48,139 bases of DNA from an uncultured Nitrososphaerales archaeon. Its GTDB lineage: Archaea > Thermoproteota > Nitrososphaeria > Nitrososphaerales > Nitrososphaeraceae. The notes under the pieces were generated by a model. That model ran no database searches, was not told the origin of the DNA, and saw nothing but the letters and a program-made list of their open reading frames with translations. Positions 9,312-42,137 of the stretch are shown here, in pieces. The stretch covers positions 1 to 48,139 of the forward strand of contig CAVPXM010000058.1 in NCBI GenBank assembly GCA_963709405.1, given 5' to 3'. A program made the position numbers and the translations under genes. Numbering within the stretch: position 1 is the stretch's first letter; each line of letters opens with the position of its first letter.

Positions 9312-9520
9312 GCCTATCTTTTGTATAATGAGGAGAGGCCATCATTAGTCACTTTAATCTAACATTTTCAAAAAGTCCTCACTCGGAGTAGATAGGTCAT
9401 TAGAAGAAAGGAAACTAATAATTACTGGAACATTCGTCGAATGCACTATAATGCTTTTTTATTAGTGAAACATGTGACACTCATGGTATTAGTGAGTAAC
9501 AACTATCTCAAATATACAAT
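9312..9520 (+). repeat. Duplicated promoter block plus first codons of the DsrE gene
   Basis: Matches 31386-31452 joined to 31741-31881; ATG at 9483 followed by truncation. Confidence 0.85.
9426..9448 (+). promoter_or_regulatory. 23-bp palindromic operator
   Basis: tggaacattcgtcgaatgcacta; T-rich box from 9454, ATG at 9483. Confidence 0.85.
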
Positions 9521-9615
9521 TGAGAAAATATACATTTACATATTTACTCAATGAAAATGTATGGGGTAGAACAAGATATTAAGAGGGTTTATTCATGTCG
9601 CAAACCAACATTATC

Positions 9616-10846
9616 CTAGTTGTGTGTTGGGTTTAATATTTCTTTAAGGTGTTCATCAGAAGTAGAATTAGCATTTGTCGCATCTACAACAAACCCTGCA
9701 CCCTGTAAAAATCTACCTATATCATGGTCGTTACCAACATAGAATCCTTGTTCAGGAAATACTACCTCTACAGATTCTGCAGAGCCAGGAGGTATTGAAA
9801 TTTCATATATTTTTGACCCTGACTGACTTTCGAAATGTGACCTTGTACGAGTATCAATTGGTTGTTTGTTGTCGGTATAATTATTACTGCTACGACCAAC
9901 TGAACTAATCATAGCAGAAGCAAAATTGAGTGAAAGAGAACCTCTTGGACCAGCATTGATGATATACCATCTTGTAAGTTCTCCTGGCTTGACTTTGAAT
10001 ATGTCTGCATCATTATTAAGTACAATTTTAGACAGAGAGCCAAAAAATGGCATGTACTTATAGGCCATACCGTTGGTTAATATTAAGTCAGGTTTATTTT
10101 CGATAAATTTGTTCATATCAAATGAGCCTATTTTGTCTTGATTTTCTTGTGCTGGCGTTGTCCTTTGTATTGTTCCTGAAGCATTAGTTTTGGTTGGTGC
10201 TGTGGTAGTAGAATTTGCAGTAGATAGAGCACCTTGAAATAATCCTCCATCTGCAGTATTATATATCTCTCCGAATACCATATAGAATTCTTTTGCAGGT
10301 TTCTCATATTTGGGATGGACTATCATGCCTCCATACATTCCACTGGCGATATGGTCCCAGATACCATTTAGATTATCCCCATCACAATGATACATAAAGA
10401 CACCAGGATTTTCTGCTTTAACTTGCCATGTTTTGCTTTCACCAGGGCGTACAGATAGCTAAAGCTTGACTTGGTCCTTCTATTCCATGCAGATCTAGAC
10501 TATGAACTAGCTCTCCTTTGTTTACTAGAGTAATCTGAAATGTCTCCCCTTGATTAACTACGATTATTGGGCCCGGTATAGTTCCATTAAAGGTCATTGC
10601 TCTATATAATATTCCTCCAGGATGTAATGCATTATCGGGCGAGATCTTTACTATATTTTCATCAGCAATTAAGATGAATTTCTTGATAGTATTGTTATTG
10701 TTAGGTTGTGATAGCAGTGTAGTCTGTAAAGATATTGATTTTTGATCATGTGATTGCCATCCTGAAAGGTGATTATTAATAGGCATAAATAATAGTATTA
10801 TCTGGAATATAATCAGAACAGTTATTCCTAAAATCAACTGATTCAT
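9616..10846 (-). CDS. nirK: NirK-like two-domain multicopper oxidase, frameshift near 10445
   Basis: HSLDLHG, YHCDGDNLNGIWDHIASGM (type 1/2 Cu ligands) and GNDHD; ORFs 10439-10846 and 9616-10395 join; paralog at 22367. Confidence 0.8.
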
Positions 10847-10955
10847 TATATGAAATGAAGTTGTCGGGATTATTTTAGGGTTATTCCATCAGTATCGATG
10901 ATCAAAGACTTCCACAAAGTGCGTTGGCTTGCATAATACGATATATGTAATGATC

Positions 10956-11430
10956 TGTACCCGGTACCAGCTGGGCAGCTTTAGGCCAGTTTTAAGATAC
11001 ACTTTGGAGGGTACAGAATATGCCAGGTAGAAGATGGAGTGGAGAAGAGAAGGCCAATATAGTGCTGGAAATATTGACCACAAGTACACCGACAGCCGAA
11101 ATATGCAGGAGGTACAACGTCAGACCAACCCTGGTCTACAGCTGGAAAGCAAGTTTCGTTCAAGCAGGTACAAGAGGTTTATCTGGTGCAGATGCATCGG
11201 ATAGAGAAAAGCAGCTGGAACAGGAAAATAAGAGACTCAAGGAAATGGTAGCTGACCTAGCACTGGCAAATGAACCTTTAAAAAAGGGGCGGACAAGGAT
11301 ATGAGAAAAGTTGCTTTTCAGGAGGTGTTGATGAAAGAGAGTAACATACTGAAAGCGTCTGTTCTGTCAGGATATTCCAGAAGTTCCTATTACTACAGGC
11401 ACAAGCAACCGGTTATCAGCAGAAATCGTC
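10956..11430 (+). mobile_element. IS3-family element, truncated (orfA and start of orfB)
   Basis: orfA 11020-11304 with HTH (WSGEEKANIV...ICRRYNV...LEQENKRLKEMVADL), slippery A-run at 11280-11287, orfB start SRSSYYY; ends are approximate. Confidence 0.8.
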
Positions 11431-11689
11431 GCACTGATTCAGCAGCACTCCATTTTGAATTCAGCTTTTCCGTTACGGCAAGTTCTAAGATCTTAGGCAT
11501 GCATGGCAGTCTGGTTACTATTCTCTAACTCGAAATTCAAGATGAATAAATAGAATGGTACAAGGACTAATTATGTTGAGCCATCAATCGGCGATGCATA
11601 TCCTGAGGGCAACAGCAACTGTTGGCTACTGACCTGAATTCACACGATTAGGAATTCTAAAAAAGGGATTAGGATCGATTTGCCCAATC

Positions 11690-12059
11690 TTTTGTGAGTT
11701 CGTGAGTTGCGAGTTCTTGCTTGTATCACTTTCCGCTCCTACCACTGCTACCGCCGTTGCTACCGCCGCTGCTACCGCCGCTGCTACCGCCGCTGCCTAC
11801 CGCCACTGCTACCGCCACCGTAAGCAGAACTAAAGCAGTCTTTTATATCCCCTTTTGTTGCAGAACCACCTGATGCGAGCATCGGAAAGACAGCTCCGGA
11901 ACTTGTCGTAATCAGTCTTACTAGAGTCGCTCCTTGAGCCGCCGCTGAGCCGCCGCTACTGCTTCCACTACTACTATCACTACCACCGCTCCTCCCGCCG
12001 CCGCTATTGCTATTATCGTCTTTCTGTGCGAATATCTGGAAGATCTCATTTGCAACTAT
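11690..12059 (-). pseudogene. Gly/Ser-rich protein fragment with a Cys pair and (GGSS)n repeats
   Basis: Minus strand FAQKDDNSNSGGG...YDKFRSCLSDA...IKDCFSSAYGGGSSGG; 12-bp repeats gctaccgccgct at 11747-11820; frameshifted. Confidence 0.55.
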
Positions 12060-12209
12060 TTATGGGAATGGTAAGACAAATGGTGTTTTGCCATCATTTC
12101 TGGACGGAGAATTAGTAAAGGAATTAGAGTCTTGAGAATTACGATGATGATGATGATGACTTCTCATTACTAGTCCTCTTATCGGTCCATCCTTTGGCTG
12201 TGACGACAT
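12060..12209 (-). CDS. 49-aa ORF or gene tail with a His5 tract ending TPFVLPFP
   Basis: MSSQPKDGPIRGLVMRSHHHHHRNSQDSNSFTNSPSRNDGKTPFVLPFP*. Confidence 0.4.
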   Translation of the reverse strand: MSSQPKDGPIRGLVMRSHHHHHRNSQDSNSFTNSPSRNDGKTPFVLPFP

Positions 12210-12308
12210 GTTATCTAGATAGTAGACGTTCGCTACCTGGTTTTAATAACATTAGGACACAGATAGCAAATACTTAAATGGTTAGATTACTTTTCATCCT
12301 CAAAACAC

Positions 12309-13972
12309 ATGAATAAGTTCGTAAATACTCAGCTCATTCTATTCATGATCATATTTTGCCACGCGTCATATCTGGCTCCTTGTTTATTTTCCGACGTCAA
12401 TGCTCACATTTTTGTTTCTAGTGATGATAACGCTCCATTTCTTACATTAATTGAAAGAGTAAGAATAGAGGCGTTATTAGCAAACAATTCACTTCACTCC
12501 AATCTAACTTCTTCCAATGAGCATCTAGCTCAACTTTTAGATAGGCTAGATGATGTCATAGACAATGAGAACTATTTTGTAGTTAAGAGCCTATGCGAAA
12601 AGTCCACTTCTTCTATAGGTGATCCATGCACATGCAAAATGTAACATTCCAATATAGTTTTCAATCCTCTTTTCCCATCTTACCAGCAATCGTCTGAATC
12701 TGTTCATCCAAGAATGGGTTCTTTCAACAACCCATCGTCTAGCTCTGTATTTTGGTATTCCTTCTTTAATGCTCCTTCTTTCCTTTCCTTTTAATCTGAT
12801 GTGAATTGTATAGCCATACTCTTCCAGTAATTCGTATACCTCTGGAAACGCGTAGCCTTTGTCCATGCACATGTGCTGCTTTGATCTGATTGTTGGTTCA
12901 GGTCTATAGATGACTATGCTTTGCAATGTTGCTTTGGTCATCTTCATGTCATGCCTGTTAGCTCCATCTACAGATACACCAAGTGGTACTCCTTTACCAT
13001 CTACCAGAATACTACGTTTTGTACCTGATTGACTCTGTCTGTGGGATTTGGTCCTGTGCTTTTTTCCCCCAAGAGGCGCTTTTGTAATAACGCCATCCAT
13101 AGCCTGCCATTTCCAATCGATCCCAGTTTTTTTATCATATACCGACAATCCATCGATCCACATTCGCTTGAAAACACCAGCCTTTCTCCCTTCCTGGAAT
13201 CTGTCATGTACTGTACTTGAAGCACCAAGACTTCTAGGTAGAGCATTCCACTGACAGCCTGTACGTAGGACGTAGAAAATAGCACTCATGGCCTTCCTAT
13301 CATCCATTCTTGGACGACCAGCCTTTTTCTTCTTTCTCCTACGTATTGATGATGATAGCAATGTAATGATTCTATCCCATACAACATCAGGTATGCAGTA
13401 CGATGAATCAACTCCAGTAACCTCTGATATCAATACAGCTCAAAAGAAAGTGTAGTACCAGCTTAGCTTTATCGATCAAACACAGTTTGCTTATAACTCA
13501 ATAAAACTCTACTTTTCGGATGGGTTCTAAGAGTGAACAATTTAGTAATTCTACAGTTGATGCATTGTTTCTTGCAAACGTCGTGGATGAAATTTTGCAG
13601 TACTATGGAGGGGCATACGGAATCCTACCCAATGTAATGCTAAACATGTCTTCTATGTCTTCTATGTCTTCTATGTCTTCTATGTCGGCCAATTGTGAAA
13701 TTAAGCCCAATCCTAGGTCTATTATTGATATGTCCAAATATCAAACCGCTAAGGAATATGCAAAAAGGGCTGTGGAAATATTTGATGCAGAATTGAAACC
13801 GTATGAAACGAAAAATAATACCAGTACTGCTGGCCAGGTTGAGAAATCCCTTGCCGAATTGAAAAAAGCAGTAGACAATAAAGCTCAGCCACTAGAAATC
13901 ATGATTATCGTCCATACCAAAATTCATCCGAATTTGCAACTAGCGTACAATCTCAAGATTAGAAATAAATGA
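12309..13972 (+). pseudogene. Secreted His1/Met-loop helical protein interrupted by IS5
   Basis: VNA-HIF leader, (MSS)4 tract at 13646-13681, IVHTKIHP; homologous to 27710 and 41053; the uninterrupted junction is seen at 2092-2110. Confidence 0.85.
12587..13527 (-). mobile_element. Complete IS5-family element
   Basis: Transposase 12591-13433 (YVLRTGCQW, AMDG, MDKGY, RWVVERTHSW); imperfect IRs gagcctatgcgaaaagt / acttttcggatgggttc; TAA target duplication at 12584-12586 and 13528-13530. Confidence 0.95.
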
Positions 13973-14509
13973 TTAAGCTACAAGATCTACGGTAGTTCAA
14001 ATGGTATTACACTGCCAGAGTGCATTGAATTAATGCAATAAACACGCCAAAGACTGAGACATCCAAGGCAGTGCAACCAATACCCTATTCGCTACTTCCG
14101 ATTCTCGATCGTTTATTGATACCGGTATTGCTATTGAATATAAGGAAATGAGTAATTCGCCTTTTTAATTCCAGAGATGTTTCTACAATGGTTCATGCAT
14201 CCATAAGATTAGCAAGAGTCTGGCAAGATGTAATTACAGTGAATGACATTTTGGGATACTGGACAAGTAGGTGTTCAAAAATAAATATGAACAGAGTATT
14301 TCTGCATTGTCGTAAATGAAAACAACGAAGGTTTAAAGTGCTAAACATCAATTTCAAATCTATCTATGGTATTTTTGAGATCTTGTTTGCTTCTTTTATA
14401 GGTGTACCAACTAATAATTCCAAGAATAACAGAGAGAATAATTGCCAGTAGTGTAAATGAATCGAATTTTGGCATCTGTTCTTGATTTTGTGAGTTATTT
14501 ATATTATCG

Positions 14510-16759
14510 TTAGAGCTCGCTACTAGCCATTTTCATGTTCGTATTCGAAGCTTGATGGGGAGCGTTTGTGATTTTAGAGGTAAACGCATAATTCAAATCA
14601 TAATCTCCTTGTCTCTGAGCAGCCATAGCAACATTCCATTCTCCCGGCAGACCGATAAATGCACCAACAGTAAATATATTTGGCTGAATTTTATGCATTG
14701 TGACAACGATGGGTCCGATATCTGCTTTTTCATTCTTGAAAATCAACTCAGCTCCTGTTACTTTGGCATAGGGTTTGCCATTTGGATCGGTAAAGGTGAT
14801 CTTAAATGTATTAAACCCTGAGTAAAATGGATTTATTTCTATCTTGGTATTTACATTCATTATATTTACTTGTTTTACATAAGTGCTATTTTTCATCTGC
14901 ATCTGACTTCCAGTCATGGCCATGTGAGATGAAGGTGCAGTTGACCCAGAGTGTGACATATCTGACATAGAGGCCATACTCATTGAATTAGGCGAAGTCA
15001 CGCTAAGTATAGATGCCACCAACAATACAGCCAATGCTAACAAGGATTCAATTCTAAGTGTATATCCAAATCTGGAAAAAATAGTCTCATCATTATTATT
15101 ATTTGCCAACCCAGAATAATCATTTTTCTTATTCCTCGCAATTAGATTAATGAGTTTTTGAACTTTTGTTTTTTTATCATCATCCTTTAAGGTTTGTACG
15201 ATTTGCTTGCTTTCACCAGTGTTCTTACCATTTTCCTCTTTTGGAGAGCTAATTCTAGCGCCAACCTTTCCAATATTTGTAATCATAACTATAAAACCAT
15301 GAATCTTTGTTTGATGGTATGCTCCTAGAAGAACTAATGGCAGGGCAACTGCCAACTTGATTATCAGAACATTTCCGTAAGGTGAATAAAACAATGCATT
15401 AAGAGTATGAAGCTCAATCCAAGCCATGTAAATGCCACTTATACCGACTATCCCGAGTGATAGAGTAGCAATAAGCGAAAACCTTGGAAGTAGAATAGCA
15501 AGATAATATGTCATTGAGTCAATCGTATTCTTGTTTGATGTATCGGTAACTCTTTTGATTTCATCTTTTGAACTCTGATTCATCTTCGCGTTTTTTGGTG
15601 AAATCAACTGTGGATGTGATATTTCTGATCGTTTCAATGAGGACAACAACACGGTCGAGATGTAAAACAAACCACCTACCCACAATGAAACTGCCATCAG
15701 ATGCAACCAGTCAATAAATACAGCTAGAGATGGAATGAAATTCACTGCTGCATTATGGCTTGCAATACTGCTCGCTAATATACTTACTGCACCCGCAACA
15801 AAAGCGAAGTACAGTAAGAATGATTTTGATGCTGGAAATTTACTCTTTTTGGAACTTTCATCATCTCTTTTCTTACGTAAGACGTAATAATTGATGAGCA
15901 CGCATATTATTATTATTGAGGAGGTTACAATATAAAGTAACCAAGATAGTCCTGTAGATCCATGCAATACAGATCTAAAGATCGACCAATAGCTAGAATT
16001 GCTATTAGCCGCAAGCTCAGTAACTTGCAAAAATAATGACGAACTCCCACTTGCTATGATAGCTACAGACGCAGATAACAATACAATACTAAATCTTCTT
16101 ATCCAAGGCAAAGTCGTCTTGAATTTAGTCTCATTCAAACCTTTTGAACTATTTTTTTTATAAATTTTACTTCCAAACATCTCCCATAAAAACAGATGAG
16201 AAAATATTCCTCCTACAATGGCTACTTGTGATACTATCAAAGGCCATTTTATCAATCCATCTAAATTAGATGTTACTGCAACTGTCTGAATACGTTGTTG
16301 ATTCAATGACGTGCCGATATTAGATGAACCCCCACTAGCTCCCCCAGGGCCAACATTTCCTATTCCGAATACGTAAGATCCTCGTGCGATATGGCCATCA
16401 TCAATAGATTGTGTCATCCACGAAACAGTATATACTCCATCTGTCAATTTATGAGATTTTAATGTTGTTTTAGCTTCACGATTATGATCTCCAATGATTA
16501 TGAAATTATTATTGTCCACTCTTTGGTTCATTGCATTCAAAACTTGTATAGTACTTACATTAGGATCAGGTCTTTCTGAAAAATCGATCGTTATTTGCGT
16601 AGGAATTGGCATGCCCTTTTTTATTATAGAATTAGGAGCAGGTGTTTCGGTTACTGGAAGTGAATGAGCATAGGCATAATTTAGACTATTACTATTTAGA
16701 CTAGTTAAAAGAAAAATGGCAACTAGTGAAAATATGACCGCTATGAAGATTTTGTTCAT
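14510..16759 (-). CDS. copCD: CopC-CopD fusion copper uptake protein with Met-rich linker and C-terminal YtkA-like domain
   Basis: AYA-HSLP mature N-terminus, SIDDGH, ASHNAA, WLHLMAVSLWVGGL, RFS..A, YG..LIIKL; MSMASMSDMSH linker. Confidence 0.92.
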   Translation of the reverse strand: MNKIFIAVIFSLVAIFLLTSLNSNSLNYAYAHSLPVTETPAPNSIIKKGMPIPTQITIDFSERPDPNVSTIQVLNAMNQRVDNNNFIIIGDHNREAKTTLKSHKLTDGVYTVSWMTQSIDDGHIARGSYVFGIGNVGPGGASGGSSNIGTSLNQQRIQTVAVTSNLDGLIKWPLIVSQVAIVGGIFSHLFLWEMFGSKIYKKNSSKGLNETKFKTTLPWIRRFSIVLLSASVAIIASGSSSLFLQVTELAANSNSSYWSIFRSVLHGSTGLSWLLYIVTSSIIIICVLINYYVLRKKRDDESSKKSKFPASKSFLLYFAFVAGAVSILASSIASHNAAVNFIPSLAVFIDWLHLMAVSLWVGGLFYISTVLLSSLKRSEISHPQLISPKNAKMNQSSKDEIKRVTDTSNKNTIDSMTYYLAILLPRFSLIATLSLGIVGISGIYMAWIELHTLNALFYSPYGNVLIIKLAVALPLVLLGAYHQTKIHGFIVMITNIGKVGARISSPKEENGKNTGESKQIVQTLKDDDKKTKVQKLINLIARNKKNDYSGLANNNNDETIFSRFGYTLRIESLLALAVLLVASILSVTSPNSMSMASMSDMSHSGSTAPSSHMAMTGSQMQMKNSTYVKQVNIMNVNTKIEINPFYSGFNTFKITFTDPNGKPYAKVTGAELIFKNEKADIGPIVVTMHKIQPNIFTVGAFIGLPGEWNVAMAAQRQGDYDLNYAFTSKITNAPHQASNTNMKMASSEL

Positions 16760-16911
16760 TCTACTTGACTCATATTTTTTGGGTTCCGACCTTATTGAAG
16801 ATTACTGTATCCCCTCATCGTATATGGCATTAGCTCAAATTCCATAAAAAAGGAATGCGATTTTCACATACAGTAATTTAACTCTTTGTTCAATATCGTC
16901 GAGTAAGTTAT

Positions 16912-17488
16912 CTATGGAATTGTTGCATCAGCCTTTGGCAGAGGACAACCAAAACCGCCTGCGACACCTTGACTTTGCACTCCAGATGAAAGTGTCATTT
17001 TATTGTTATTTCCCGGGTGATCATCGCCTGCACCAGGAACACATTTGTAGCTGATATGAATCGGGGTATTATTTATTGTTCCATGTCAATGTATAGGTAT
17101 ATGTTGTTTGAGCACCTGGAAAGAATGTGGCAGTATAGTGAGCTGGATTACTATCATCGGGTTCAAAATCTAGTGTTTTATTTTTTGGACCAGCTGAGAC
17201 CTCAACTTTGACAGTCTTTTCTAAACCTGTTATAGGCTTGGTACCATTGGCTCCATCATTCAAAGGGTCTTTAGGATCAGGGGTATATGCGAAAAAGTCT
17301 ACTCCAGATCTATCACCCACATATACGGGTTCGCTAGCTGAACCAACTACAAGTAACGCTGGCTTTCCTCCTATTGTTAGGAGTTGTCTTTCATGTGCAA
17401 ACACACTTGTGCTCATTGAGAAAAAGAGCACTGCACTAAGAAAAGATATTACAGGTAACAATGCGTACTTCGTATTTTTGATATCCAT
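16912..17488 (-). CDS. Secreted His1 GGFGC-family protein, frameshift near 17085
   Basis: VFA-HERQ leader; continues GTINNTPIHISYKCVPG...VAGGFGCPLPKADATIP* to 16912; paralog of 19631. Confidence 0.75.
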
Positions 17489-17524
17489 AATTAAGATATG
17501 AGAAAGTTTGCAATTTAAATCTTG

Positions 17525-17547
17525 TATGACATTCGACGAATGTACCA
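17525..17547 (-). promoter_or_regulatory. 23-bp palindromic operator
   Basis: Minus strand tggtacattcgtcgaatgtcata, 5 bp, TTTAAA (17519), ATG at 17488. Confidence 0.9.
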
Positions 17548-19578: not shown

Positions 19579-19601
19579 TGGTACATTCGTCGAATATTCT
19601 A
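19579..19601 (+). promoter_or_regulatory. 23-bp palindromic operator
   Basis: tggtacattcgtcgaatattcta, 5 bp, CTTAAA (19607), ATG at 19631/19637. Confidence 0.9.
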
Positions 19602-19630
19602 AAACACTTAAATCTAGACTTACAAATTAC

Positions 19631-20724: not shown

Positions 20725-20747
20725 TACTCTATTCGACGTTTGTACCA
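20725..20747 (+). promoter_or_regulatory. 23-bp palindromic operator upstream of the sensor/regulator operon
   Basis: tactctattcgacgtttgtacca, 5 bp, CTTAAA (20753), ATG at 20782. Confidence 0.75.
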
Positions 20748-20781: not shown

Positions 20782-21199
20782 ATGCAATCAAGTAGGCTTC
20801 CTATAAGCAATATTGCAGACAGTAAGCCCAAGTTACTTGGATTAATATCAGTTCTTGTTATAGGGATTTTGGCTGTACCCTGTAATTTTGCCTCATGTAA
20901 GTCATGTTGACATGATATATCATATTCTACTACACTTAGCGAGCCTAATTATTTCGATTTTCCTTGGTACTGTGTCCCTCATTGCTTACAACAGAAATCG
21001 GTGTGGTAGGCTATTATTTATGGCAATGGGATTTCTATCACTAATAGTAATTGAATGCTTATACTTGGTATTTGCAACAACAAATATCGAGGATATAATA
21101 ATACCAGTAGTAAGGATTGAATTGCCGCATGTGATACTTTTTGCAATGTTAACCTTATTTGGTATTGGGATCTTCAGAGTGAGTAACAAGAATTTATGA
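20782..21199 (+). CDS. His-rich small integral membrane protein (about 4 TM), frameshift near 20880
   Basis: MQSSRLP...LLGLISVLVIGILAVP then LPHVSHVDMIYHILLHLAS...IELPHVI; stop overlaps the next ATG. Confidence 0.75.
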
Positions 21200-21780
21200 A
21201 TTCAGATTCAAGAGCATTAGAGGAAACTCCTATAATAAATCATCCTACTCACATCATTCAGATTTCACAAGAATCTAAACGAATTATTAGTGTATCACTT
21301 TTAAATCACATTAACAGAAATCCTGGCATAAGATATAGGGAACTCCTTAGATTGTCCGGCATCGGCAACGGCGTCTTAACATACCATCTTTTGATACTGG
21401 AGAGGAAGGGTAAAATAAGAGTACATAGAATTAGAAATAAGATGACAAGATATTATCTTACACAAATTCCAGATAAAGATACAAAGATTATAAGCTCTCT
21501 AAAAAATAAGATGACAAGACAACTTGTACTCTTCATTTTGACTCACGACATGTGTTCATTTAGGAAAATAGTTGAATGCAATGGAAAGGCACCATCTACT
21601 ATATCATGGTATCTTAACAGATTAAGAGACGTAGGAATTGTATCTATAGAAACTGGGGAACGCTGTCAACTTTATACTTTAGCCGATAGTAAAGAGATCA
21701 AGAAGATATTATGTAGATATAAAGAAGTATTCTTGGATAAATGTGTGCATAACTACATTGAAATGATGGATCAGCTATAA
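21196..21780 (+). CDS. Archaeal double winged-helix transcription regulator
   Basis: INRNPGIRYRELLRLSGIGNGVLTYHL and a second HTH KAPSTISWYLNRLRDVGIV. Confidence 0.88.
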   Translation: MNSDSRALEETPIINHPTHIIQISQESKRIISVSLLNHINRNPGIRYRELLRLSGIGNGVLTYHLLILERKGKIRVHRIRNKMTRYYLTQIPDKDTKIISSLKNKMTRQLVLFILTHDMCSFRKIVECNGKAPSTISWYLNRLRDVGIVSIETGERCQLYTLADSKEIKKILCRYKEVFLDKCVHNYIEMMDQL

Positions 21781-21970: not shown

Positions 21971-21993
21971 TGGTACATTCGTCGATTAAACCA
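21971..21993 (+). promoter_or_regulatory. 23-bp palindromic operator with no downstream ORF
   Basis: tggtacattcgtcgattaaacca, 5 bp, ATAATA (21999). Confidence 0.85.
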
Positions 21994-22027: not shown

Positions 22028-22153
22028 CAGGATCCGCGAGCAAAGGATACATTCACATCATAAGTCTTGATTACTACTTGGTGGAGGTAGCCTAGACAAA
22101 AGTGAGAGCGGTTTGAGTGAATTTTACACCGATTTGATTCCTTTGCTCGTTTT
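22028..22153 (+). ncRNA. Candidate structured small RNA
   Basis: 12-bp closing stem 22036-22047/22139-22150 enclosing further stems, T-run after it, start at the expected distance from the operator/TATA. Confidence 0.5.
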
Positions 22154-24736: not shown

Positions 24737-24759
24737 TGGTTCGTTCGACGAATGTTCTA
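24737..24759 (-). promoter_or_regulatory. 23-bp palindromic operator
   Basis: Minus strand tagaacattcgtcgaacgaacca followed by taaag, as at 31787. Confidence 0.8.
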
Positions 24760-27652: not shown

Positions 27653-27675
27653 TGGAGCATTCGTGAAATGTACTA
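27653..27675 (+). promoter_or_regulatory. 23-bp palindromic operator
   Basis: tggagcattcgtgaaatgtacta, 5 bp, TTTATT (27681), in-frame GTG at 27710. Confidence 0.78.
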
Positions 27676-27709: not shown

Positions 27710-28774
27710 GTGTGCATTATCAATAAATGTATGATGGCTATTGAAAGAGCCTCGCTATATTCGACAGTAAGTATTTTATCTACATTATTTGTCATTACTG
27801 TCGTTATGACAGCAGTGCTTCCGGCTTATGGTCATACATTCTCACAAAATGAGAATTCTTTATTTCTGACTAAAATGGATCAAATGCATTCTCAGTTACA
27901 ACTAGTTCAGAATCTTCTTTCCACCAATGCAACTTCTGGCGGTAATAATACGAACAATACCAAATTCGCTCTAATTCATGCGATCGAGGCAGCAGCATTG
28001 TTAAAGCAAAAGGATCCTGTAAACAATTTTACATGGAATCAGGAGATTGCGGAAAGAAATCAAAGGGTTGCAAATGATCTTGTAAGAGGATTAAACGATC
28101 TCACTACCTTCATAGATCAGAATGCATCACCAAAAGGTAATTCCAAGGTTGCTTTAGCCAATGAAAGCTCATCTATTCAAGATAAAATAAATAATTTAGG
28201 TGGCCTCTTAGATGAGGCCATATCTGCTAGAGTCGCGAAAGATATCGTGAATAATTCAACAAATCAGGCTCTGGTGCTGGCTAATATCGGAAACGAGATA
28301 TTTTATAGCTATGGTCAGGCTCTTGGATTTCCATATCCAAAGTTGGCTAATATGGTTGCAACCATGAATATGTCTGCGATGAGTGGTAATAATATGAATA
28401 TGCAAGGAAAGAATATGATGCAGGAAAATATGAATAATATGAATATGAATAATATGAATATGAATAGCAACAAGATGCCAGCCATGGGTAATAATGTGAA
28501 TATTCTAAATGAATCACAATATCAGAATGCGCAGGCGTATGTCAAACAAGCCCAAGAAATGGTCTCAAAGTATCTAAAGTCTCCAGCCTCTACTAATAAA
28601 AATATGACCTCTGATGTGCAATCACATCTGAATAAAATCCTTTCGCAGCTAAAAACAACTATTGATAATAAGGGACCATTCAATACTGTAATGACTCTTG
28701 TACATATGCAACTACATCCAACACTAATATCTGGTCATGGGCTGAAATTAGTAGCCCCTCCTCCCACTACTTAA
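27710..28774 (+). CDS. Secreted His1/Met-loop helical protein
   Basis: AYG-HTFSQNE, (MN)-rich loop, VHMQLHP; close paralog of 41053; start revised from 27632 by promoter spacing. Confidence 0.85.
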   Translation: MCIINKCMMAIERASLYSTVSILSTLFVITVVMTAVLPAYGHTFSQNENSLFLTKMDQMHSQLQLVQNLLSTNATSGGNNTNNTKFALIHAIEAAALLKQKDPVNNFTWNQEIAERNQRVANDLVRGLNDLTTFIDQNASPKGNSKVALANESSSIQDKINNLGGLLDEAISARVAKDIVNNSTNQALVLANIGNEIFYSYGQALGFPYPKLANMVATMNMSAMSGNNMNMQGKNMMQENMNNMNMNNMNMNSNKMPAMGNNVNILNESQYQNAQAYVKQAQEMVSKYLKSPASTNKNMTSDVQSHLNKILSQLKTTIDNKGPFNTVMTLVHMQLHPTLISGHGLKLVAPPPTT

Positions 28775-29544: not shown

Positions 29545-29567
29545 TGGAACATTCACCGAAAGAACCA
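29545..29567 (+). promoter_or_regulatory. 23-bp palindromic operator
   Basis: tggaacattcaccgaaagaacca, 5 bp, TATTTG (29573), GTG at 29601. Confidence 0.75.
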
Positions 29568-29600: not shown

Positions 29601-30107
29601 GTGGTATTGAACAAGATTACCATACACGGGATTCATTATTTTTCCCCACTAGTAGGTCATGCATTACCGCCAAAGAGCTATATTCATCTATACGATACGA
29701 CACCATATCATATTATGAATGGCCATGTAGCAATTAAGGTCCCATGTAATGCTAAGTCTGAACCGTCAGTTCAGATCTTAGATGGAGTAGCACCTTTTTT
29801 ACAGCCAGCTAAATTGGAGCTAATTTCTAAATTGTCTGTTCCTGGAAGTATATGCTTGTACCATCATGATTTGATTTCGATAATGGGTCCACAAGGTAGA
29901 CTGATTACTGATGTTGCACTAATGAACCCAACTGATTCAGAAATTGTCTTTCCCAAGACCAGTACTGTAGTACTAGGAGTAAATGAGATCATGTTGGATC
30001 CCGATGCATTTCCTGAAGAAATGAAAGAAATGGGAAATATGACAGCAGTTTCTTTTTCCCATTTCCCTCCCCTCAAAGAACCATCGTGTCCATGTATGCT
30101 GCTATAG
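29601..30107 (+). CDS. HxYDxTPY-family His/Cys protein (paralog of 36963 and 47929)
   Basis: HLYDTTPY...GHVAIKVPC...CLYHHD...TDVAL.NP...GVNEI. Confidence 0.75.
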   Translation: MVLNKITIHGIHYFSPLVGHALPPKSYIHLYDTTPYHIMNGHVAIKVPCNAKSEPSVQILDGVAPFLQPAKLELISKLSVPGSICLYHHDLISIMGPQGRLITDVALMNPTDSEIVFPKTSTVVLGVNEIMLDPDAFPEEMKEMGNMTAVSFSHFPPLKEPSCPCMLL

Positions 30108-30368
30108 TTTAATCTTATAACATCATAATGAGGAATATTTGCGTCTCTTACCTGATACGAGAAAGGTTTACCAACAGAATTTATGTGAGAAGACTAAGAG
30201 GTGGTCTGTGCTATGACACTTGACTTATGACGTTTTGTTCCTAACTTACCTCTGTCTGTAGGATTAGGGCCAGCCAATCATTTCCCCCCTAAAGGTGCCT
30301 TTACAGATATTAGCTAGTATCGATCATGATATCAGTATTGTCAATAAATGTTGGTACGTCTTATAGAC

Positions 30369-30391
30369 TGGTACATTCGTGGTATGTACCA
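30369..30391 (+). promoter_or_regulatory. 23-bp palindromic operator with no adjacent ORF
   Basis: tggtacattcgtggtatgtacca, 5 bp, AATAAT (30397). Confidence 0.85.
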
Positions 30392-31786: not shown

Positions 31787-31809
31787 TGGAACATTCGTCG
31801 AATGTACTA
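31787..31809 (+). promoter_or_regulatory. 23-bp palindromic operator
   Basis: tggaacattcgtcgaatgtacta; T-rich box from 31815, ATG at 31844. Confidence 0.9.
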
Positions 31810-35265: not shown

Positions 35266-35353
35266 TAATCATTATTTAGCTCACAGATAATTATAAGGTT
35301 TTTCAACGTATTGTGTGCTGAATTTTAACTTGTGCTAAGACCAAATACTTCCT

Positions 35354-35539
35354 AATATCTCCACGCATGTCTGCAATATCTCCACTTATTGCGATTAAAT
35401 CAAGGTAATTAATAGTGGAGGTATTTGTAGTAAGGTCGAGATATCTTAAAGCGTTGCATGAAATATCTCTACCACTTTTAGACTTACTTTGAGCACGAAT
35501 TCGGCTTTGGTGGAGGTAGTGGAGATAGTGAAGGTATTT
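35354..35539. repeat. Cluster of AATATCTCCAC-like direct and inverted repeats
   Basis: Copies at 35354, 35375, 35462 (+) and 35415, 35435, 35510, 35519, 35528 (-). Confidence 0.6.
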
Positions 35540-35715
35540 TCAGTTTATCTTTTGGTCGTAAATCTGAAGGAAGTTATGGAACCTGTGCATCAGCTAGTTC
35601 TATTGGATTAGCATGGTGTGTCATTCATTGGTACTCCTAAACTTCTACTCTTTTTGGAATACAACTTGTATCTTGTTTTGGAATAATTCAGAGATAAGTA
35701 AGCGTAGAAGTTTCA

Positions 35716-36021
35716 CTATATTTGATCCCTAGTTAGTGAGGTAGAGTAGATGGTATGTCTGGTTTGCGTACCTACTAATTCCTCCGAAGTCTCATTATTA
35801 CGCTTAACAAACCTAGGGGCTATTTGTAGCTTCTTTATGCTATTGCTCAGTTGAGTTTTAACATCATATACTTTGGCTAATGCTGCCGTATGTAGAGATA
35901 ATACGCCACCTCCATTATTAATCCTATAATTATTCAATAAATCGTCATAAGTGGACAAGATTACTGCCATGATGATCATGGAAATAATAGTCACCAAGGA
36001 CAATGCCTTTAACTTCTGCAT
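35716..36021 (-). CDS. Hypothetical secreted protein or 5' fragment
   Basis: Signal-peptide-like N-terminus only. Confidence 0.35.
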   Translation of the reverse strand: MQKLKALSLVTIISMIIMAVILSTYDDLLNNYRINNGGGVLSLHTAALAKVYDVKTQLSNSIKKLQIAPRFVKRNNETSEELVGTQTRHTIYSTSLTRDQI

Positions 36022-36962
36022 CTTCTAAAGATGTGTCACCTCATCATCCTCTATTTCTGATTGACATAATAGATTTACGCGACATTCAGCCGACAGATCA
36101 ATGAAAATAAAATTTACACTTGTGACTCCCAGCAAGAAAATAGGTAGTGGACTGTCATTAGGTCAAGCATTGCCATAGTAGATATAATGATGCACGGAAT
36201 ACCAATTTGTTCTACAGACTAAATTCAATTAATACTATTAATCAAAATGTAACCTATCTATGTAAATATAACAACTAGGCATAGGTAGATCGATAGGCTA
36301 CGCTGAGACAGACGTTGATTACCTGTGTTATGATTATCTTGTAATAGCTTTAGGGAGTGATACGAACGTAGCTCGCAGTCATCGAACCATCATTATTATC
36401 GGGCTTACATAAAATAGCAAAGCTATAGTAATAAATGTATAATCACGAGTTATCACATACTTTTTTGCGAATTAGACATTGAATTTTTAGAATCGGGCCA
36501 GATTGATCTACCATGCATCAACTAGCCTTGTTCTCTTATCACTTCATGATGATCTTCCACTTTAAATCCTATTTCTGACAGATATGTTCTATCGAAAATC
36601 ATACTATGCCCCTAAATGTAAATCATCATTGTCATAAAATCTAACCCATGCAATGAATTCTTCAGTTATTTCATAAATAATAATTATTAATCAGTCTTAG
36701 AATAAATGCCAAGATCGGATTTAATCGTTAATATCCAAGTCGACTTGGAATATCACATTTGTCGCATATGTTATTACATTTTCGAGTTACGTTCAATATA
36801 GATATGATAGGTCAGTTGTGTTATGAGATGAAATTCAAATATGCTATGATTAACTGATCACATCTTGTACATTAATTCGATCGGTACAATATCCAAAAAT
36901 AAAAAAATAGCGCTGAGTTCGAAATGGGCTTTATCATATTGTCAATACTAGATTTCCAGTCT

Positions 36963-37550
36963 TTAACCGCCTGGAACTCCTGGTTGGATCTCGTTTACAC
37001 CTACTACTGCAGTGCTACTTGGTGGAAATGTTATGGGCTGGTCAGAGGGATTTTGTAATGCTACATCTGTCTGGTAAACTTTCTTTGCAGGATCTGAATC
37101 AATATCTACGTGATACAAGCACATATTTCCAGGCTGTGATAATTCCTTTATAATATCTGGTTCTACAACTTTGAACGCGGGAGCGGGTCCAATAAGTACG
37201 TTTACATTGGCCTTAGAATTCAAGTCACATGGAACATGTAGAGCTACGTGTCCGGCATTTATCATGTATGGTGTAGAATCGTAAATATGTAAGAATCCCT
37301 TCCCTGGTATGGTCTGGCCTTGTAGAAGAAGTGTAATAGTGTCTCTAGTAACTGTACTTTGATTGCCTGTGGGACTAGCTGATGACATATTCATGCTTGA
37401 CATTCCTCCACTAGTTCCCTGATCTTGTGATGGATTCAGTGGATTAGTCTGACCTAGGACTTTCGTAATTCCTGTTGTCATAATAGCTAATGACAGTGCA
37501 ATTGCAACCAACATTCCAAATGCAATTCCGTTATTTCTATTACTTTTCAT
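36963..37550 (-). CDS. Secreted HxYDxTPY-family His/Cys protein with Met patch
   Basis: Signal peptide, GMSSMNMS, HIYDSTPY...GHVALHVPC...CLYHVD. Confidence 0.82.
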   Translation of the reverse strand: MKSNRNNGIAFGMLVAIALSLAIMTTGITKVLGQTNPLNPSQDQGTSGGMSSMNMSSASPTGNQSTVTRDTITLLLQGQTIPGKGFLHIYDSTPYMINAGHVALHVPCDLNSKANVNVLIGPAPAFKVVEPDIIKELSQPGNMCLYHVDIDSDPAKKVYQTDVALQNPSDQPITFPPSSTAVVGVNEIQPGVPGG

Positions 37551-37591
37551 TTGTATTAGTATGTGAGGCGATCGCCAGCCTAATAACTTTT

Positions 37592-37614
37592 TAGTTTATT
37601 CGACGAATGTACCA
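37592..37614 (-). promoter_or_regulatory. 23-bp palindromic operator
   Basis: Minus strand tggtacattcgtcgaataaacta, 5 bp, TTATTA (37586), ATG at 37550. Confidence 0.88.
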
Positions 37615-37790
37615 GAAGTTCCTTAAGCTCACCTTGAGTTTATTTCACTGCGTTAACCATCAATTTAAAGCATTTACAATTGAATACTCTTAAGACGTCA
37701 TGTTAAATCTTAATAGATAAAGAATATATGAAATTCTGAAAAACATCAGCCCTAATTATGAAAGCAGACTTTATCTGAAAAAAACTGCTT

Positions 37791-38474
37791 TCATAGCCCT
37801 TCTGGAAATGAATACTTTGAAGGAATAGACTTTGGAGGTGTCCCGTAAACGAGTGCAATCTCGTCATGAGCATTCAACTTGACATCTTTGTAGTTTACAT
37901 TACTTGGTACTTTATTACCATTCACATAGACAGTTGGTACTTGTTTTCCACCCAGGATGTCATCAAATGATTTGGAATTATTCAATTTACTCTTCCAGAC
38001 TTCAAAGAATTGACCTAACGTAAAATCTCTCTTTAAAGGTGACTCGATATGTATAATGCCTGTCCCATCATGTGTATGCAACCAGTATATACATTTATCA
38101 TCCACGATACCGATTTGTGGAGGGATATATATGAGATGATCATTGACAAAGATATCAAGATGTGCATGTATATGAAATTGGAGCATCTCCATTGTATTGC
38201 ATTGTATACCATCTATGGTTAGGTCCGGATGAGAGGAGGAATTCAAGCCCATTGTATAATAGATCCCTAAGCCTGCACCGAGAGCAACCAAAATACTAAT
38301 ACTAGTAAATATAATCAATTTTTTGGAAACATCTCGTGATCTGCTGCTATGTGGTTTGATAGGCTCTATCTTATGCAGGTCATTATGAACATCATCCTTA
38401 TGTTTTTCCAGATTCTTTCTGGATTCAAATGATTTTCCACACACATTACAAGGTATTCTTTCTTTGTCTACCAT
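37791..38474 (-). CDS. C2H2 zinc finger - TM - extracellular His-rich domain protein
   Basis: CNVCGKSF....LEKHKDDVH; one TM; FHIHAHL, CIYWLHTHDGTGIIHIES, FTLGQFF. Confidence 0.85.
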   Translation of the reverse strand: MVDKERIPCNVCGKSFESRKNLEKHKDDVHNDLHKIEPIKPHSSRSRDVSKKLIIFTSISILVALGAGLGIYYTMGLNSSSHPDLTIDGIQCNTMEMLQFHIHAHLDIFVNDHLIYIPPQIGIVDDKCIYWLHTHDGTGIIHIESPLKRDFTLGQFFEVWKSKLNNSKSFDDILGGKQVPTVYVNGNKVPSNVNYKDVKLNAHDEIALVYGTPPKSIPSKYSFPEGL

Positions 38475-38715
38475 CGATAATCCCGATCTCTCATTTAGTC
38501 TATATTCCTAGTAAAATATAGAGGTTAAGATATATTCGTTATTGTTGACACGAATGGACTGAAATGTGTAAAGTCACTATCATGTTTTCGTGAACAGTCA
38601 TTATCAGCTGGCTTTTACCATCAAACCAAATCTAAGCTGTCTAGTTATTAATCTCATTGCATAATGCAATGCAGATTTTCTCCAATGCTTTCAAGAAGAC
38701 TTACGATTTTGAATT

Positions 38716-38739
38716 TGGTATATTCCGTCGAATGTACTT
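38716..38739 (+). promoter_or_regulatory. Palindromic operator with a 1-bp insertion
   Basis: tggtatattcCgtcgaatgtactt, 5 bp, TTACAA. Confidence 0.7.
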
Positions 38740-38825
38740 TCAAATTACAAACTAATAGAAAACAAAACTACAGTATATCGCAAACATAATATAAGTATGT
38801 GATTCAATGTAGCTATATTAGTAAT

Positions 38826-39990
38826 ATGCGATCTAGAGGATCTGCTTCGCTATTTTTCTTTGTTTTGACGAGCACTATTCTTGTTTATTGTATGATTTTA
38901 TCAGCAATTCCGTTACCGATTTTTAACCGCGCATTCGCTGATGGATTGTCACAGGAGCAGATATCTGCATCTATGGGCTCTAGAAAAGCAGACTTGCTCA
39001 TTAAGACGACGCCACCAGTTGTTACAACAGAGACCTTGCAATCATCAAAACAAAAGCCAGTTCTTGAATTTAGATTATTCGACTCAAATTCAAACAAATC
39101 GTTTAGTCACGTAAACTATTACATCACAATCGATAAAGATGGTAAGGAACTGCTCTCTGACTGGTTTCATTCTCACGATGGAGATTTAGGAATTCAGATT
39201 ATCCCAAGTAACATGAGTAAAATGAAATTGTCTGGAGAGCAAGAACCACTTGTAGGCGGATATATCGGAACACTGGATAAACCAGTTATCGCTGAAGGAC
39301 CAATGTTTGTAAATGGTGGTCTATATCATTTTACGGTACGAATTGGTACTGTGGATTGTGATACCTGCATACTACCTGCCGAACAACAGCATCTCTATGA
39401 TAGTTGGTTGAGTATTGGCAGTGTATTGAATCGTCAAGTAACTCTCAGTGACAAACAAATTCCAGTTAAAGATTATATCATATTATGATAAATTGAATAA
39501 CTTTACATTTGATAATAAAACTATGCGAATGCAATTTACCATGCCATTCAACTGGAACATCAAACGAATAAATAGCACTAATATCTTTGTTCATCAAGAA
39601 GTATACGTACCGAAAGCCAATGCCTTTACTAATAATGGGTCGTTTATTGGAAAGGTAAATGGAGTAGACGTCTCAAAACAGATCGTAGTAGATAATAGCA
39701 ATCCAGGTAGGGATGTGATCCATGTGATGTTACCAAAGGATACGGTCCTTAAAGTAGCCGATCAAGTTAGGAAAAATGACCAGCAACAGGTTCTAAATGG
39801 AACTAATCAACTATGACGATGAACTTTGAACTACAGCCTAGTCCGAAGACTTCTACCACGAGGATCGGAAATATGTCTATGTCAATGGGGGCAATGGGCT
39901 CGATGGGGTCAATGCCTTCAGGATCTACCTCTCGATAGATATCCCTCGCTAAGGACTTTGGCGATTTTCATACATTCTCTACTATATGTA
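38826..39990 (+). pseudogene. Large thaumarchaeal surface protein, frameshifted and truncated
   Basis: AFA-DGL leader, HVNY, WFHSHDG, GGLYHF, CDTC; continues in ORF 39448-39816, then ENMSMSMGAMGSMGSM in another frame. Confidence 0.65.
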
Positions 39991-40025
39991 CTGGTTAAGG
40001 AATTAATCAGATCTATAGATGCATA

Positions 40026-40666
40026 TCATCTTGAAATCCTTTGCCTATGCTGTACTACCAGTACTAGTGATACAGCCACCGCAGCGATGATTATTCCCGC
40101 AATTATTATTACAGCTAAAAGACGATGTAGGGGCAGTAAAGGTACCAAACGGTTGAAATGGCACATCTACTCTTAAATGATCCGAGGGTAGACAAATTGT
40201 TCGAATCTACTCTTGTTATCACTTGATAGGTGCCGGAATCAGGAAAAATATAGTTTACATTGAAATCTCCATTCGAAGAAGAAATATTATCGAACTTGAA
40301 TGTTCTCAGTTGGCCCGCTACTATTGGTTGTTACAACAACCCGTGCATGAAGCTCACTAATATTCTTGGAATCTGTTAAGTTCTGTACTACAAATCTCAG
40401 TTGGGTTTTGGTATCAATCATAGGGGATTGTCGGTATATTGTTAAATTGAATTTTCATATTATTTATTTTGTCAATCCACTGTTGTGTGCTACTACCAGA
40501 ATTGCTGCTAGATATCGATGACGTTTGTGCTAAAACCACATGCGATGATGAAAGTGCATCATGATTTGTGACAATCTGTAGAACATTTAATGTCAGTAGG
40601 ATGAAAGATGCAAAGTAAACCGGCTTTAAGGCTCTACCGCTTATGATGTTACTAGAAGATGTCCAT
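40026..40666 (-). pseudogene. Frameshifted paralog of 30683 (not in the ORF track)
   Basis: Minus strand VVLAQTSS...QQWIDKINNMKIQF, ISSSNGDFNVNYIFPDSGTYQVI, AGIIIAAVAVSLVLVV. Confidence 0.75.
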
Positions 40667-41052
40667 ACATTACGTGTATTGCTAGATAGTGATGAACTCA
40701 GTATTTTTCGCCTCTTATAATAAAATCATTTAGCTTCTTAGTGCTATATATCTTCTCAAGAGAAGGAGGAAGTTGTTTTTGTGATACACTATCATTTACC
40801 ATCTTCTCCAAAGAATAACGCCTTACCAATATATCACTCACAATCAACTCTCGAAACGATCTATATTTTATATTCACATTCATCTTGATCTGCCTGCAAT
40901 TTCTGCATATATCGACCACCGGTCGAGGGAGCTGAACATTATGTTCTTCAAGGCTAAGTGATAATCGAGATCCAATCATGCCTCTATCGGTGACCACGAC
41001 AATAATCGATCAACCTCAAAAAATATAGTTATAAAACTTTTCCATTGTTGCA

Positions 41053-42078
41053 CTAACCAATCTTGTAATTAGATATCAATGTGGGATGTAGCTGCAAATG
41101 GATAAGATTCATCACAGTACTGAACGAACCTTTGCTATCAATAGTCATTTTTAGCTGTGAGAGAATCTTGTTTAGTTGTGATTCTATGTCTGAAGTTGCA
41201 TTTTTGGTTGCGGACCCTGGTGACTTGAGATATTTGGGAATAATTTCTTGAGCTTGTTTGACATACGCCTGAGCGTTCTGATACTCTGACTCATTTAGTA
41301 TACTCACCTTATTGTCCATGGCTAGCCTATTCTTGTTGCTACCGGCATTCATATTATTCATATTATTCATATTTTTTGCTTGCATATTCATATTAGAACT
41401 CATTGCTGACATATTCATTGTTGCGACCATATTAGTCAACTTAGCCTGTGGAAATCCAAGGGCCTTACCATAGCTATAAAATATTTCGTTTCCCATATTA
41501 CCCAGCACTAGCGCCTGATTTGTAGAATTGTTTACAGCATCTTTTATCACTCTTGCAGATACAGCCTCATCAAGTAGGCCACCCAAATTAACTATATTGT
41601 CTTGAATAAGTGAGTTATTATCAGCAAGTGAAGATTTATTATTAGGTGGTGTAGATACTTTCTGGTTTAGAGAAACCTTTAAGTCATTTAGTCCTCTGGT
41701 AAGATCCCTTGCTATTCGTTGATTTCTTTCTGCAATTTCTTGGTTCCATGTGAAATTGCTTCCAGGATCTTTCTGATTTAGTAATGCTATTGCCTCCATC
41801 GCATGAGTTTGAGCGAATTTGGTATTATTCATATTATTATTGCTAGCACTGGTATTGGTTGAAAGAAGATTCTGAACCAATTGTAACTGAGAATGCATTT
41901 GATCTACTCTAGTAAGGAACAACGAATTTTCATTTTGTGAAAATGTATGCCCAAATGTAGAAGGTAATGTCGATATCGCGGTACTTGTGAATACAAATAT
42001 AGTGAATAAACTAATTAAGAACCGAAATGATTTTTCAGTCCTCATCGTAGACACAATCCATTTATTGACACTATTCAT
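41053..42078 (-). CDS. Secreted His1/Met-loop helical protein
   Basis: TFG-HTFSQNE, MNMSAMSSNMNM loop, IHLQLHP; paralog of 27710. Confidence 0.88.
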   Translation of the reverse strand: MNSVNKWIVSTMRTEKSFRFLISLFTIFVFTSTAISTLPSTFGHTFSQNENSLFLTRVDQMHSQLQLVQNLLSTNTSASNNNMNNTKFAQTHAMEAIALLNQKDPGSNFTWNQEIAERNQRIARDLTRGLNDLKVSLNQKVSTPPNNKSSLADNNSLIQDNIVNLGGLLDEAVSARVIKDAVNNSTNQALVLGNMGNEIFYSYGKALGFPQAKLTNMVATMNMSAMSSNMNMQAKNMNNMNNMNAGSNKNRLAMDNKVSILNESEYQNAQAYVKQAQEIIPKYLKSPGSATKNATSDIESQLNKILSQLKMTIDSKGSFSTVMNLIHLQLHPTLISNYKIG

Positions 42079-42114
42079 GATTATTTTATCATTCTTTAGT
42101 CCTTATAAGTATTA

Positions 42115-42137
42115 TAGTGCATCACTCGAATACGCCT
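42115..42137 (-). promoter_or_regulatory. Degenerate palindromic operator
   Basis: Plus strand tagtgcatcactcgaatacgcct (13/22 matches), placed 5 bp from CTTATA (42109), with ATG at 42078. Confidence 0.5.

Follow-up and report, generated by a model that had tools for sequence, protein, structure and literature searches.

The 48,139-nt stretch of DNA analysed here (the window; contig CAVPXM010000058.1 of an uncultured Nitrososphaerales archaeon) repeats a 23-bp palindrome, TGGTACATTCGNCGAATGTACCA, upstream of many of its genes. This raises the questions of whether the palindrome is a control site, which protein reads it, and to what signal that protein responds. The results identify the repeated palindrome as a real control site built from a directional 16-bp element, and point to a tandem winged-helix protein encoded in the window as its probable binder. 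A small membrane protein from the same operon, here named MEM, is the candidate sensor.

Seven window sites lie within three mismatches of the consensus, versus none in 100 shuffles; the 11 main sites carry two to six mismatches, and the next best position in the window carries seven. Genome-wide, nine of the 15 matches with at most four mismatches fall in the window, which makes up 1% of the genome. A check matrix trained solely on 91 sites from other genomes recovered the same consensus, and the genome scan proposed in a first-pass annotation of the window, run with this matrix, returned 19 matches of at least 20 bits (10 of them inside the window) and none for the reversed control. The 13 site coordinates named in that annotation are all correct, although a further site (47817, minus strand) was missed. 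Block duplication as the sole source of the motif is contradicted, since it accounts for the 9426/31787 pair alone: the flanks of this pair are identical at 37 of 40 positions, those of all other site pairs at 4–22 of 40, and paralogous genes stand behind several sites despite unrelated flanks.

The same annotation had proposed an island-wide regulon. The control site stands, but it is not specific to the island, being present in two large families of the order: a strict pattern was found in 47 of 73 genomes of the window's own family and in 33 of 73 genomes of family f13, the small, AT-rich genomes of which suggest a marine group. Elsewhere it was found in 2 of 11 genomes of f9, 3 of 74 of f10 and none of 69 across 16 other families; the reversed pattern, used as a control, matched 8 of 301 genomes. 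The nearest named records are Nitrososphaeraceae, in agreement with the assignment of the operator to an ammonia-oxidising archaeon. Relatives were also analysed in a sample of 80 loci of up to 20 kb each (1.48 Mb), chosen around homologues of the regulator described below; it contained 91 sites of at least 15 bits, versus six for the reversed matrix.

The spacing originally claimed between motif, TATA box and start codon is exact at nine promoters. An AT-rich box lies 5 bp past the motif and 28–31 bp before the start at 9426, 17525, 19579, 20725, 27653, 29545, 31787 and 42115, and 36 bp before the start codon at 37592; the box behind 29545 is a poor TATA. Four listed sites lack an ordinary target, namely 9426 (a remnant), 24737 (TATA and ATG lost), and 21971 and 30369 (no open reading frame, ORF). 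Placement relative to TATA and start is thus not random, the geometry being fixed at the nine window promoters and across relatives: in the 80 loci a start codon lies at +33..39 for 42 of 182 site-strands, versus 3–20 in the other 7-nt bins.

Although the palindrome is real, the functional unit is not the 23-mer but a directional 16-bp element, TTC-N6-TGWACCA, that ends 5 bp before the TATA box; the 23-mer is two such elements interlocked, one on the top strand and one on the bottom. The promoter of the MEM-regulator operon retains only TTC-N6-TGWACCA, and ACCA is better conserved on the gene-facing side (0.31 mismatches) than on the distal side (0.74). The two sub-sites of the element are centred 11 bp apart, a spacing that would suit the modelled regulator with its pair of winged helices. 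Between element and TATA box, the zone of the B recognition element (BRE) is T-rich at operator promoters and A-rich in controls (mean purines 2.5 versus 3.4 and 3.6), with a T at -4 in 0.68 of 31 operator promoters versus 0.31 and 0.22 in the noisy controls. A box could be scored in 31 of 42 operator promoters and in 231 of 1146 and 219 of 565 controls, and the profiles cover these promoters; they were used directly, since a de novo expectation-maximization model of TATA/BRE from the source genome gave no sharp box.

The autoregulatory site at 20725..20747 (plus strand) consists of a single gene-facing element (20732-20747) followed 5 bp on by the TATA box CTTAAATT and by an ATG at 20782. It heads the gene for MEM, a four-helix membrane protein with a conserved His/Glu cluster (20782..21199, plus strand; +1 frameshift near 20878), which overlaps at 21196-21199 the gene for the tandem winged-helix regulator (21196..21780, plus strand). 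Homologues of MEM gave 75 hits in loci L065-L144, and 72 genes were kept once three fragments shorter than 88 aa had been dropped. The right-hand half of the element, TGWACCA, was selected for at 30-42 nt before the start, while the other columns were left unselected. Such a half stands at promoter distance in 65 of the 72 genes, from five families (f1, 32 of 38; f13, 25 of 25; f9, 5 of 6; f4, 2 of 2; f15, 1 of 1). Among the unselected columns of these 65 promoters, TTY is present nine bases upstream in 62 and A at position 12 in 56; the outer left half is present in none, and TATA follows at +6/+7. The full element precedes 62 of the 72 genes, versus a base rate of 4 in 3917 ordinary ORFs, and all three MEM copies of the source genome have it upstream. 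Its position before the MEM-regulator operon is an autoregulatory signature.

Regulator and site are also linked across genomes. In 21 of the 24 f13 genomes with both listed, no more than 10 kb separates the best regulator match from a strict site, and strict sites occur in 31 of 49 f13 genomes with MEM versus 2 of 24 without it, three of these 24 being counted as negative because they were absent from the match list. A looser pattern matched as often as its control in the 24 MEM-negative f13 genomes (138 versus 138) and 123 versus 96 times in the 18 MEM-positive ones without a strict site, and is too noisy for scoring single genomes. No second regulator family was found behind the element among the 143 element-bearing ORFs (of 2427) in the 80 loci. 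The autoregulatory position, the linkage, the co-occurrence in f13 and the lack of a rival regulator family behind the element in the 80 loci make the product of 21196-21780 the probable regulator, and it probably binds the element itself; that one monomer occupies each 16-bp element is a more tentative proposal, somewhat on the doubtful side.

The N-terminal helix-turn-helix (HTH) of the regulator belongs to PF24266 (HVO_0163-like tandem-HTH; 32 bits, cut-off 31), a family matched by 39 of 39 aligned homologues (E<=0.001). A second, ArsR-like HTH and a C-terminal helix follow, and the structure model has two winged HTH domains. The second HTH resembles the ArsR fold, but the protein differs from ArsR/SmtB regulators in having two HTHs per chain, a score for NCBIfam NF033788 (ArsR/SmtB) of 23.7 bits against a cut-off of 55, and no conserved metal ligands: no Cys, His or Met is conserved at 90% or more in alignments of 39 and 54 sequences. 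No metal-binding domain was found on the window regulator, which matched HTH families alone. Fold searches with it gave no informative match, and a search of named genomes reached just four loci, all belonging to one close relative.

Since the regulator lacks conserved metal ligands and MEM has a His/Glu cluster, MEM is the candidate sensor. It is modelled as a confident bundle of four long helices (predicted local distance difference test score, 90), in which P37, H51, E91 and H116 are invariant in 36 of 36 sequences and H38, H41, H47 and E113 are kept in at least 90% of them. By the positive-inside rule, the conserved His and Glu residues would sit at the outer ends of the bundle, suggesting a metal site on the outer face of the protein. 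MEM was found in 29 of 31 (f1), 105 of 158 (f13) and 8 of 8 (f9) genomes. Its first member gave no Pfam match; weak matches among homologues were to DUF7471 (4 of 36) and MASE3 (7 of 36), and fold searches returned generic helical bundles only (best Z 9.0, root-mean-square deviation 4.3, 91 aligned). That MEM senses copper and gates the regulator has, in our judgement, an even chance of being right.

The targets were originally described as His/Met-rich secreted proteins. Export is borne out, but the richness was overstated, as eight direct targets contain 1.4–5.4% His and 1.4–6.8% Met. The clearer signal is export combined with a His at the predicted mature N-terminus: 34 of 42 targets have a hydrophobic N-terminus versus 437 of 2364 for comparison, and a signal-site His is present in 10 of these 34 versus 20 of the 437. 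In having a His at the predicted mature start, many conserved exported targets resemble CopC. The targets common across families are exported proteins of unassigned function. In f13 loci L086, L095, L099, L102 and L103, the element also stands before a gene that appears nitrilase-like by eye and before a cluster with a MoxR-like ATPase, likewise named by eye, and large exported proteins.

The operator had been thought undescribed, which is not so. An 18-nt motif, TTCSGSMTTTGWACYANT, was described by Reyes et al. (2020; PMC7785015) with 12 occurrences before genes induced under Cu limitation in Nitrososphaera viennensis, and this motif corresponds to palindrome positions 8-25. Position 8 is its best fit in 72 of 91 sites of relatives, and the same register is best on one strand or both at each of the 11 main window sites (3-6 mismatches of 18). 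The two motifs agree in sequence and register, in preceding the copC/D cluster (site 17525) and an operon of a hypothetical and an ArsR-like gene (site 20725); in N. viennensis, genes behind the motif are induced under Cu limitation. They differ in that the Reyes motif is a one-sided 18-mer at -35 to -70 from one species, and the text passages of that study contain neither the palindrome, the TATA phasing, the cross-family conservation nor an assigned regulator (PMC7785015). The palindrome may explain the cases marked '2x' and 'opposite strand' by Reyes et al. The motif itself is therefore not new, having been seen before in part. A literature search for the palindrome, the regulator or the RNA described below found only this study to be relevant, subscription papers, theses and bioRxiv supplements lying outside its coverage; in the same search the architecture, the regulator-sensor pair, the cross-family conservation and the structured RNA were not found in print.

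Promoters of the 11 genes marked in Dataset S1 of Reyes et al. were read by eye. In five (NVIE_1457, 014290, 014250, 001850 and 014340; log2 fold change 1.4–5.5) the element is followed 5 bp later by an AT-rich box and lies 34-39 nt from the start. NVIE_014290-014280 (hypothetical plus ArsR), which lies beside copC/D, is reported as induced (log2 fold change 2.7 and 2.5; PMC7785015) and appears to be the MEM/regulator pair. The copper-responsive regulon proposed in the first-pass annotation is thus supported by induction of element-bearing genes under Cu limitation in N. viennensis (PMC7785015); its copper specificity is a further step, and copper is fairly likely to be the direct signal.

These findings might be explained as follows. 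The tandem winged-helix protein would bind TTC-N6-TGWACCA, each of its two HTH domains contacting one of the two sub-sites, which are separated by one helical turn, with one protein on the single element of its own operon and two on the interlocked palindrome of most targets. The bound protein would abut the weak T-rich BRE and activate leaderless promoters, probably by recruiting TFB, and would so drive a copper-scavenging and envelope programme under copper scarcity. Besides the regulator's own operon, this programme would take in copCD and exported His1 proteins and, in this genus, also a structured RNA. MEM would probably sense outside copper via its His/Glu cluster and gate the activator. 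The upstream edge of the BRE marks the end of the element, whose phase is kept, as is its orientation at single-element promoters. The T-rich BRE and the fixed phasing suggest activation by TFB recruitment, as with TFB-RF1/PF1089, and activation rather than repression is the likely mode; the first-pass annotation had not chosen between the two and had proposed no regulator. The explanation as a whole, a regulator-MEM pair acting as an activator switch for copper scarcity, we regard as evenly poised between right and wrong. A broader version, in which the pair is the master copper-scarcity switch across ammonia-oxidising archaea, MEM holding or freeing the activator and monomer and dimer sites giving a tiered response that includes the RNA, is possible but rather doubtful.

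Several observations weigh against this explanation. The exact geometry was seen by eye in only five of the 11 marked N. viennensis genes: NVIE_1444 has a full palindrome but its box at +8, copC/D_b has two elements and no box, four genes show nothing convincing, and NVIE_014340 has only an element facing away from the gene. In the study of Reyes et al., MEME applied to the top 25 induced genes gave no motif, and the most induced gene, MCO4_b, lacks the motif, as do most top-induced genes (PMC7785015). The equation of NVIE_014290/014280 with MEM and the regulator is based on gene order, annotation and promoter geometry. In N. maritimus, copC/D (-1.7) and MCO4 (-3.9) go down under Cu limitation. 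The N. viennensis region discussed above is also upregulated during biofilm growth, and two nitrification inhibitors induce copC/D_b. The asymmetry of whole elements in palindromic sites (1.29 versus 1.93) is not significant (p 0.21), and, as the genomes compared are related, p-values are overstated. Genomes G133 and G205 have well-placed sites though MEM was not found there; the 80 loci were picked around the tandem-HTH gene itself, and related genomes are not independent.

The responses to biofilm growth and inhibitors, and the opposite response of marine copC/D, would be accommodated if the architecture were right but the signal were envelope stress, redox stress or general metal stress, copper limitation being one trigger and MEM perhaps a channel or transporter. 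NVIE_014290 has been termed a putative cation channel (PMC12448741), and the marine targets include, by eye, the nitrilase-like enzyme and the MoxR-like ATPase cluster. Against such a signal, what the families have in common among their targets is exported proteins beside copCD, many of which carry a signal-site His, and the biofilm study attributes the induction to copper trapping. A signal other than copper therefore seems unlikely.

The same protein and site might instead serve repression, the protein being bound when copper is plentiful, blocking TFB at the BRE and being released when copper is scarce. An element that ends at the upstream edge of the BRE makes steric blocking possible, regulators bound within a promoter are described as repressors in the TFB-RF1 study (PMC5937170), and derepression would likewise account for induction of the protein's own operon; Reyes et al. 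moreover propose ArsR-type repression by this protein, of other genes (PMC7785015). However, a repressor would require neither the fixed 5-bp phase nor the orientation, yet both are conserved, weak BREs would leave the derepressed promoters poor, and the regulator has no metal site. Repression is accordingly judged quite improbable, and the activator reading is retained.

It is less plausible still that another factor, for example NVIE_014200 or a specialised TFB, binds the element and that the MEM-regulator operon is merely one of its targets. The N. viennensis cluster encodes NVIE_014200 as another regulator, whose induction is mild (log2 fold change 1.0); the sites in the two genomes where MEM was not found, and the choice of the 80 loci around the tandem-HTH gene, also leave room for such a factor. 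Nevertheless, no other element-bearing unit is as constant as the MEM operon (62 of 77 homologues), site presence tracks MEM within f13, and a protein with two HTHs is well matched to a two-part site whose parts lie one turn apart. The reading of DNA by TFB is confined to a few bases adjoining the TATA box, which speaks against a specialised TFB. Finally, that the repeats are duplication relics or mobile-element ends with no regulatory role can be dismissed as very improbable, for although the window contains many paralogous blocks and insertion sequence (IS) pieces, and 9426 and 24737 head dead targets, the flanks are unrelated except in one pair and the fixed promoter geometry in five families contradicts it.

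The nearest known parallel to the proposed activator is TFB-RF1 (PF1088) of Pyrococcus furiosus, which autoactivates its operon with the four-transmembrane-segment protein PF1089 by way of a palindrome that immediately precedes a weak BRE (PMC5937170). In both cases a gene for a protein with four transmembrane segments is followed by that of the regulator in one operon, the operon is autoregulated, and the site lies at a conserved distance just upstream of a weak BRE (PMC5937170); here this holds for the four-segment partner, the fixed-distance site before the operon itself (62 of 72) and the weak BRE. The TFB-RF1 motif, TCTGAANTTCAGA, is in contrast 13 bp long (TCTG-N5-CAGA) and differs from TGGTACATTCGNCGAATGTACCA, and TFB-RF1 is described for two operons only, with its inducer unknown (PMC5937170). 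As the motif differs, the present pair is likened to TFB-RF1 in mode only and is not classed as a member.

Two other systems are linked to copper. The archaeal regulators CopR and CopT answer copper excess through a metal-binding (TRASH) domain on the regulator; they share the link to copper, but no metal-binding domain was found on the regulator here. In Bacillus subtilis ycnKJI, YcnK is a Cu-bound repressor with its own sensor domain. The likeness lies in a CopC/CopD-type importer and an N-terminal His protein controlled under copper scarcity; the difference is that YcnK is a bacterial repressor of an unrelated protein family.

Within the window, the targets are distributed as follows. The site at 17525..17547 (minus strand) heads an exported His1 protein (ATG 17488; gene frameshifted near 17080) directly upstream of copCD, as the first-pass annotation had it, and the CopC-CopD fusion (14510..16759, minus strand) probably comes second on the 17525 transcript. 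The site at 19579..19601 (plus strand) stands before a paralogue of this exported His1 protein (ATG 19637). An exported Met-rich protein (GTG 27710 to 28774) follows 27653..27675 (plus strand), and its paralogue (41053-42078) has a single gene-facing element at 42115..42137 (minus strand), which has nine mismatches to the palindrome, yet an intact gene-facing 16-bp element. The site at 29545..29567 (plus strand, weak TATA) precedes 29601-30107, and that at 37592..37614 (minus strand) an exported protein (36963-37550) with its start 42 nt away. An exported DsrE-like protein (ATG 31844) stands behind 31787..31809 (plus strand). This promoter is duplicated at 9426..9448 (plus strand), where only a 23-codon remnant follows, and a third DsrE-type copy at 24737..24759 (minus strand) has had its TATA box and ATG deleted, in a region matched without difference by a spanning soil contig. 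The strong palindrome at 30369..30391 (plus strand) is followed by an AT-rich box, yet no ORF begins where one would be expected, and the stretch behind it folds no better than shuffles (z -1.5); an 85-bp repeat resembling a miniature inverted-repeat transposable element (30226-30310), with more than 30 genome matches, lies 60 bp upstream. The insertion variant at 38716..38739, between divergent genes, is of uncertain status: it needs a one-base insertion to fit and has no start at the usual distance.

Single-base frameshifts occur at 20878, 20130, 24508, about 17080 and 38725. Soil contigs lack the extra base at 20878, 20130 and 24508, that at 20878 being missing from a contig otherwise identical over 431 nt, so assembly indel errors are probable at these three positions; the MEM frameshift is thus probably an assembly error, and the 38716 variant may be one too. 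A second multicopper oxidase gene lies in two pieces beside an IS fragment (9616-11528), and an exported-protein gene is split by a transposase (12309-13972); a scan of the starts tested found no operator at promoter distance for either. Pieces of a family B DNA polymerase and neighbouring ORFs at 43488-47172 (plus strand) suggest an integrated element, and 46111-48139 recurs at 93% on C6:7264-9294, adjoining a second MEM-regulator locus. Elsewhere in the genome there are further probable regulon sites: C30:51393, flanked by a CopC-type gene of 1130 aa and an exported protein; C55:328694, flanked by an ABC transporter and an exported protein; C69:26664, near another ABC transporter; and one in C75 (ORF start at minus-strand offset 9988) that precedes an exported protein of 294 aa. 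Operator-like sites at C73:77218 and C73:101962 lie in inverted duplicated blocks about 25 kb apart, one of them beside an integrase-like ORF. Among relatives, tandem operators spaced 21-33 bp apart lie between divergent genes in L085, L090, L117, L121, L131 and L006, and a single palindrome serves two divergent promoters in L119 and L248.

The full palindrome with TATA at 21971..21993 (plus strand) is followed not by an ORF but by a candidate non-coding RNA of 124 nt (22030..22153, plus strand) that starts 36 nt after the operator and has a three-way junction, a 12-bp closing stem and a T-run. A covariance model detected this RNA, in up to 10 copies per genome, in 41 of 149 genomes of the family, among them the unpublished G337. 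Covariation is strong: two-sided changes were present in 19 of 25 pairs (29 distinct rows, in an alignment fitted to the model). Rfam gave no match in the whole window at gathering scores, nor in four loci at E<=5. The window copy alone folds weakly (z -1.7 and -2.3, depending on the boundary), and support comes from the relatives. An operator precedes the RNA in only three of 31 loci examined, all behind the MEM-regulator operon in this genus. A riboswitch reading of the window copy was rejected, as the next gene is convergent. The multi-copy family, most copies of which lack an operator, may represent a small RNA, a ribozyme or a mobile relic. Further copies were found at C26:16473-16651 of the same genome and in loci L178-L208; the extra degenerate site at 47817..47839 (minus strand) heads only the first ~45 nt of the RNA, and the stretch behind it is no better folded than shuffles (z +1.4).

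Much of nitrification is driven by ammonia-oxidising archaea, which rely on copper enzymes. How the cop genes are regulated, and with it how copper uptake is switched on, was called an open question in the N. viennensis study (PMC7785015), and there is now a defined site with a candidate regulator and a candidate sensor. The pair could be tested with purified proteins, without genetics, and gives a testable role to an archaeal tandem-HTH family that is both widespread and unstudied, and to the small membrane proteins paired with it. A new RNA family is a by-product, and the element itself provides a sequence marker for predicting regulon members among exported proteins of unassigned function.

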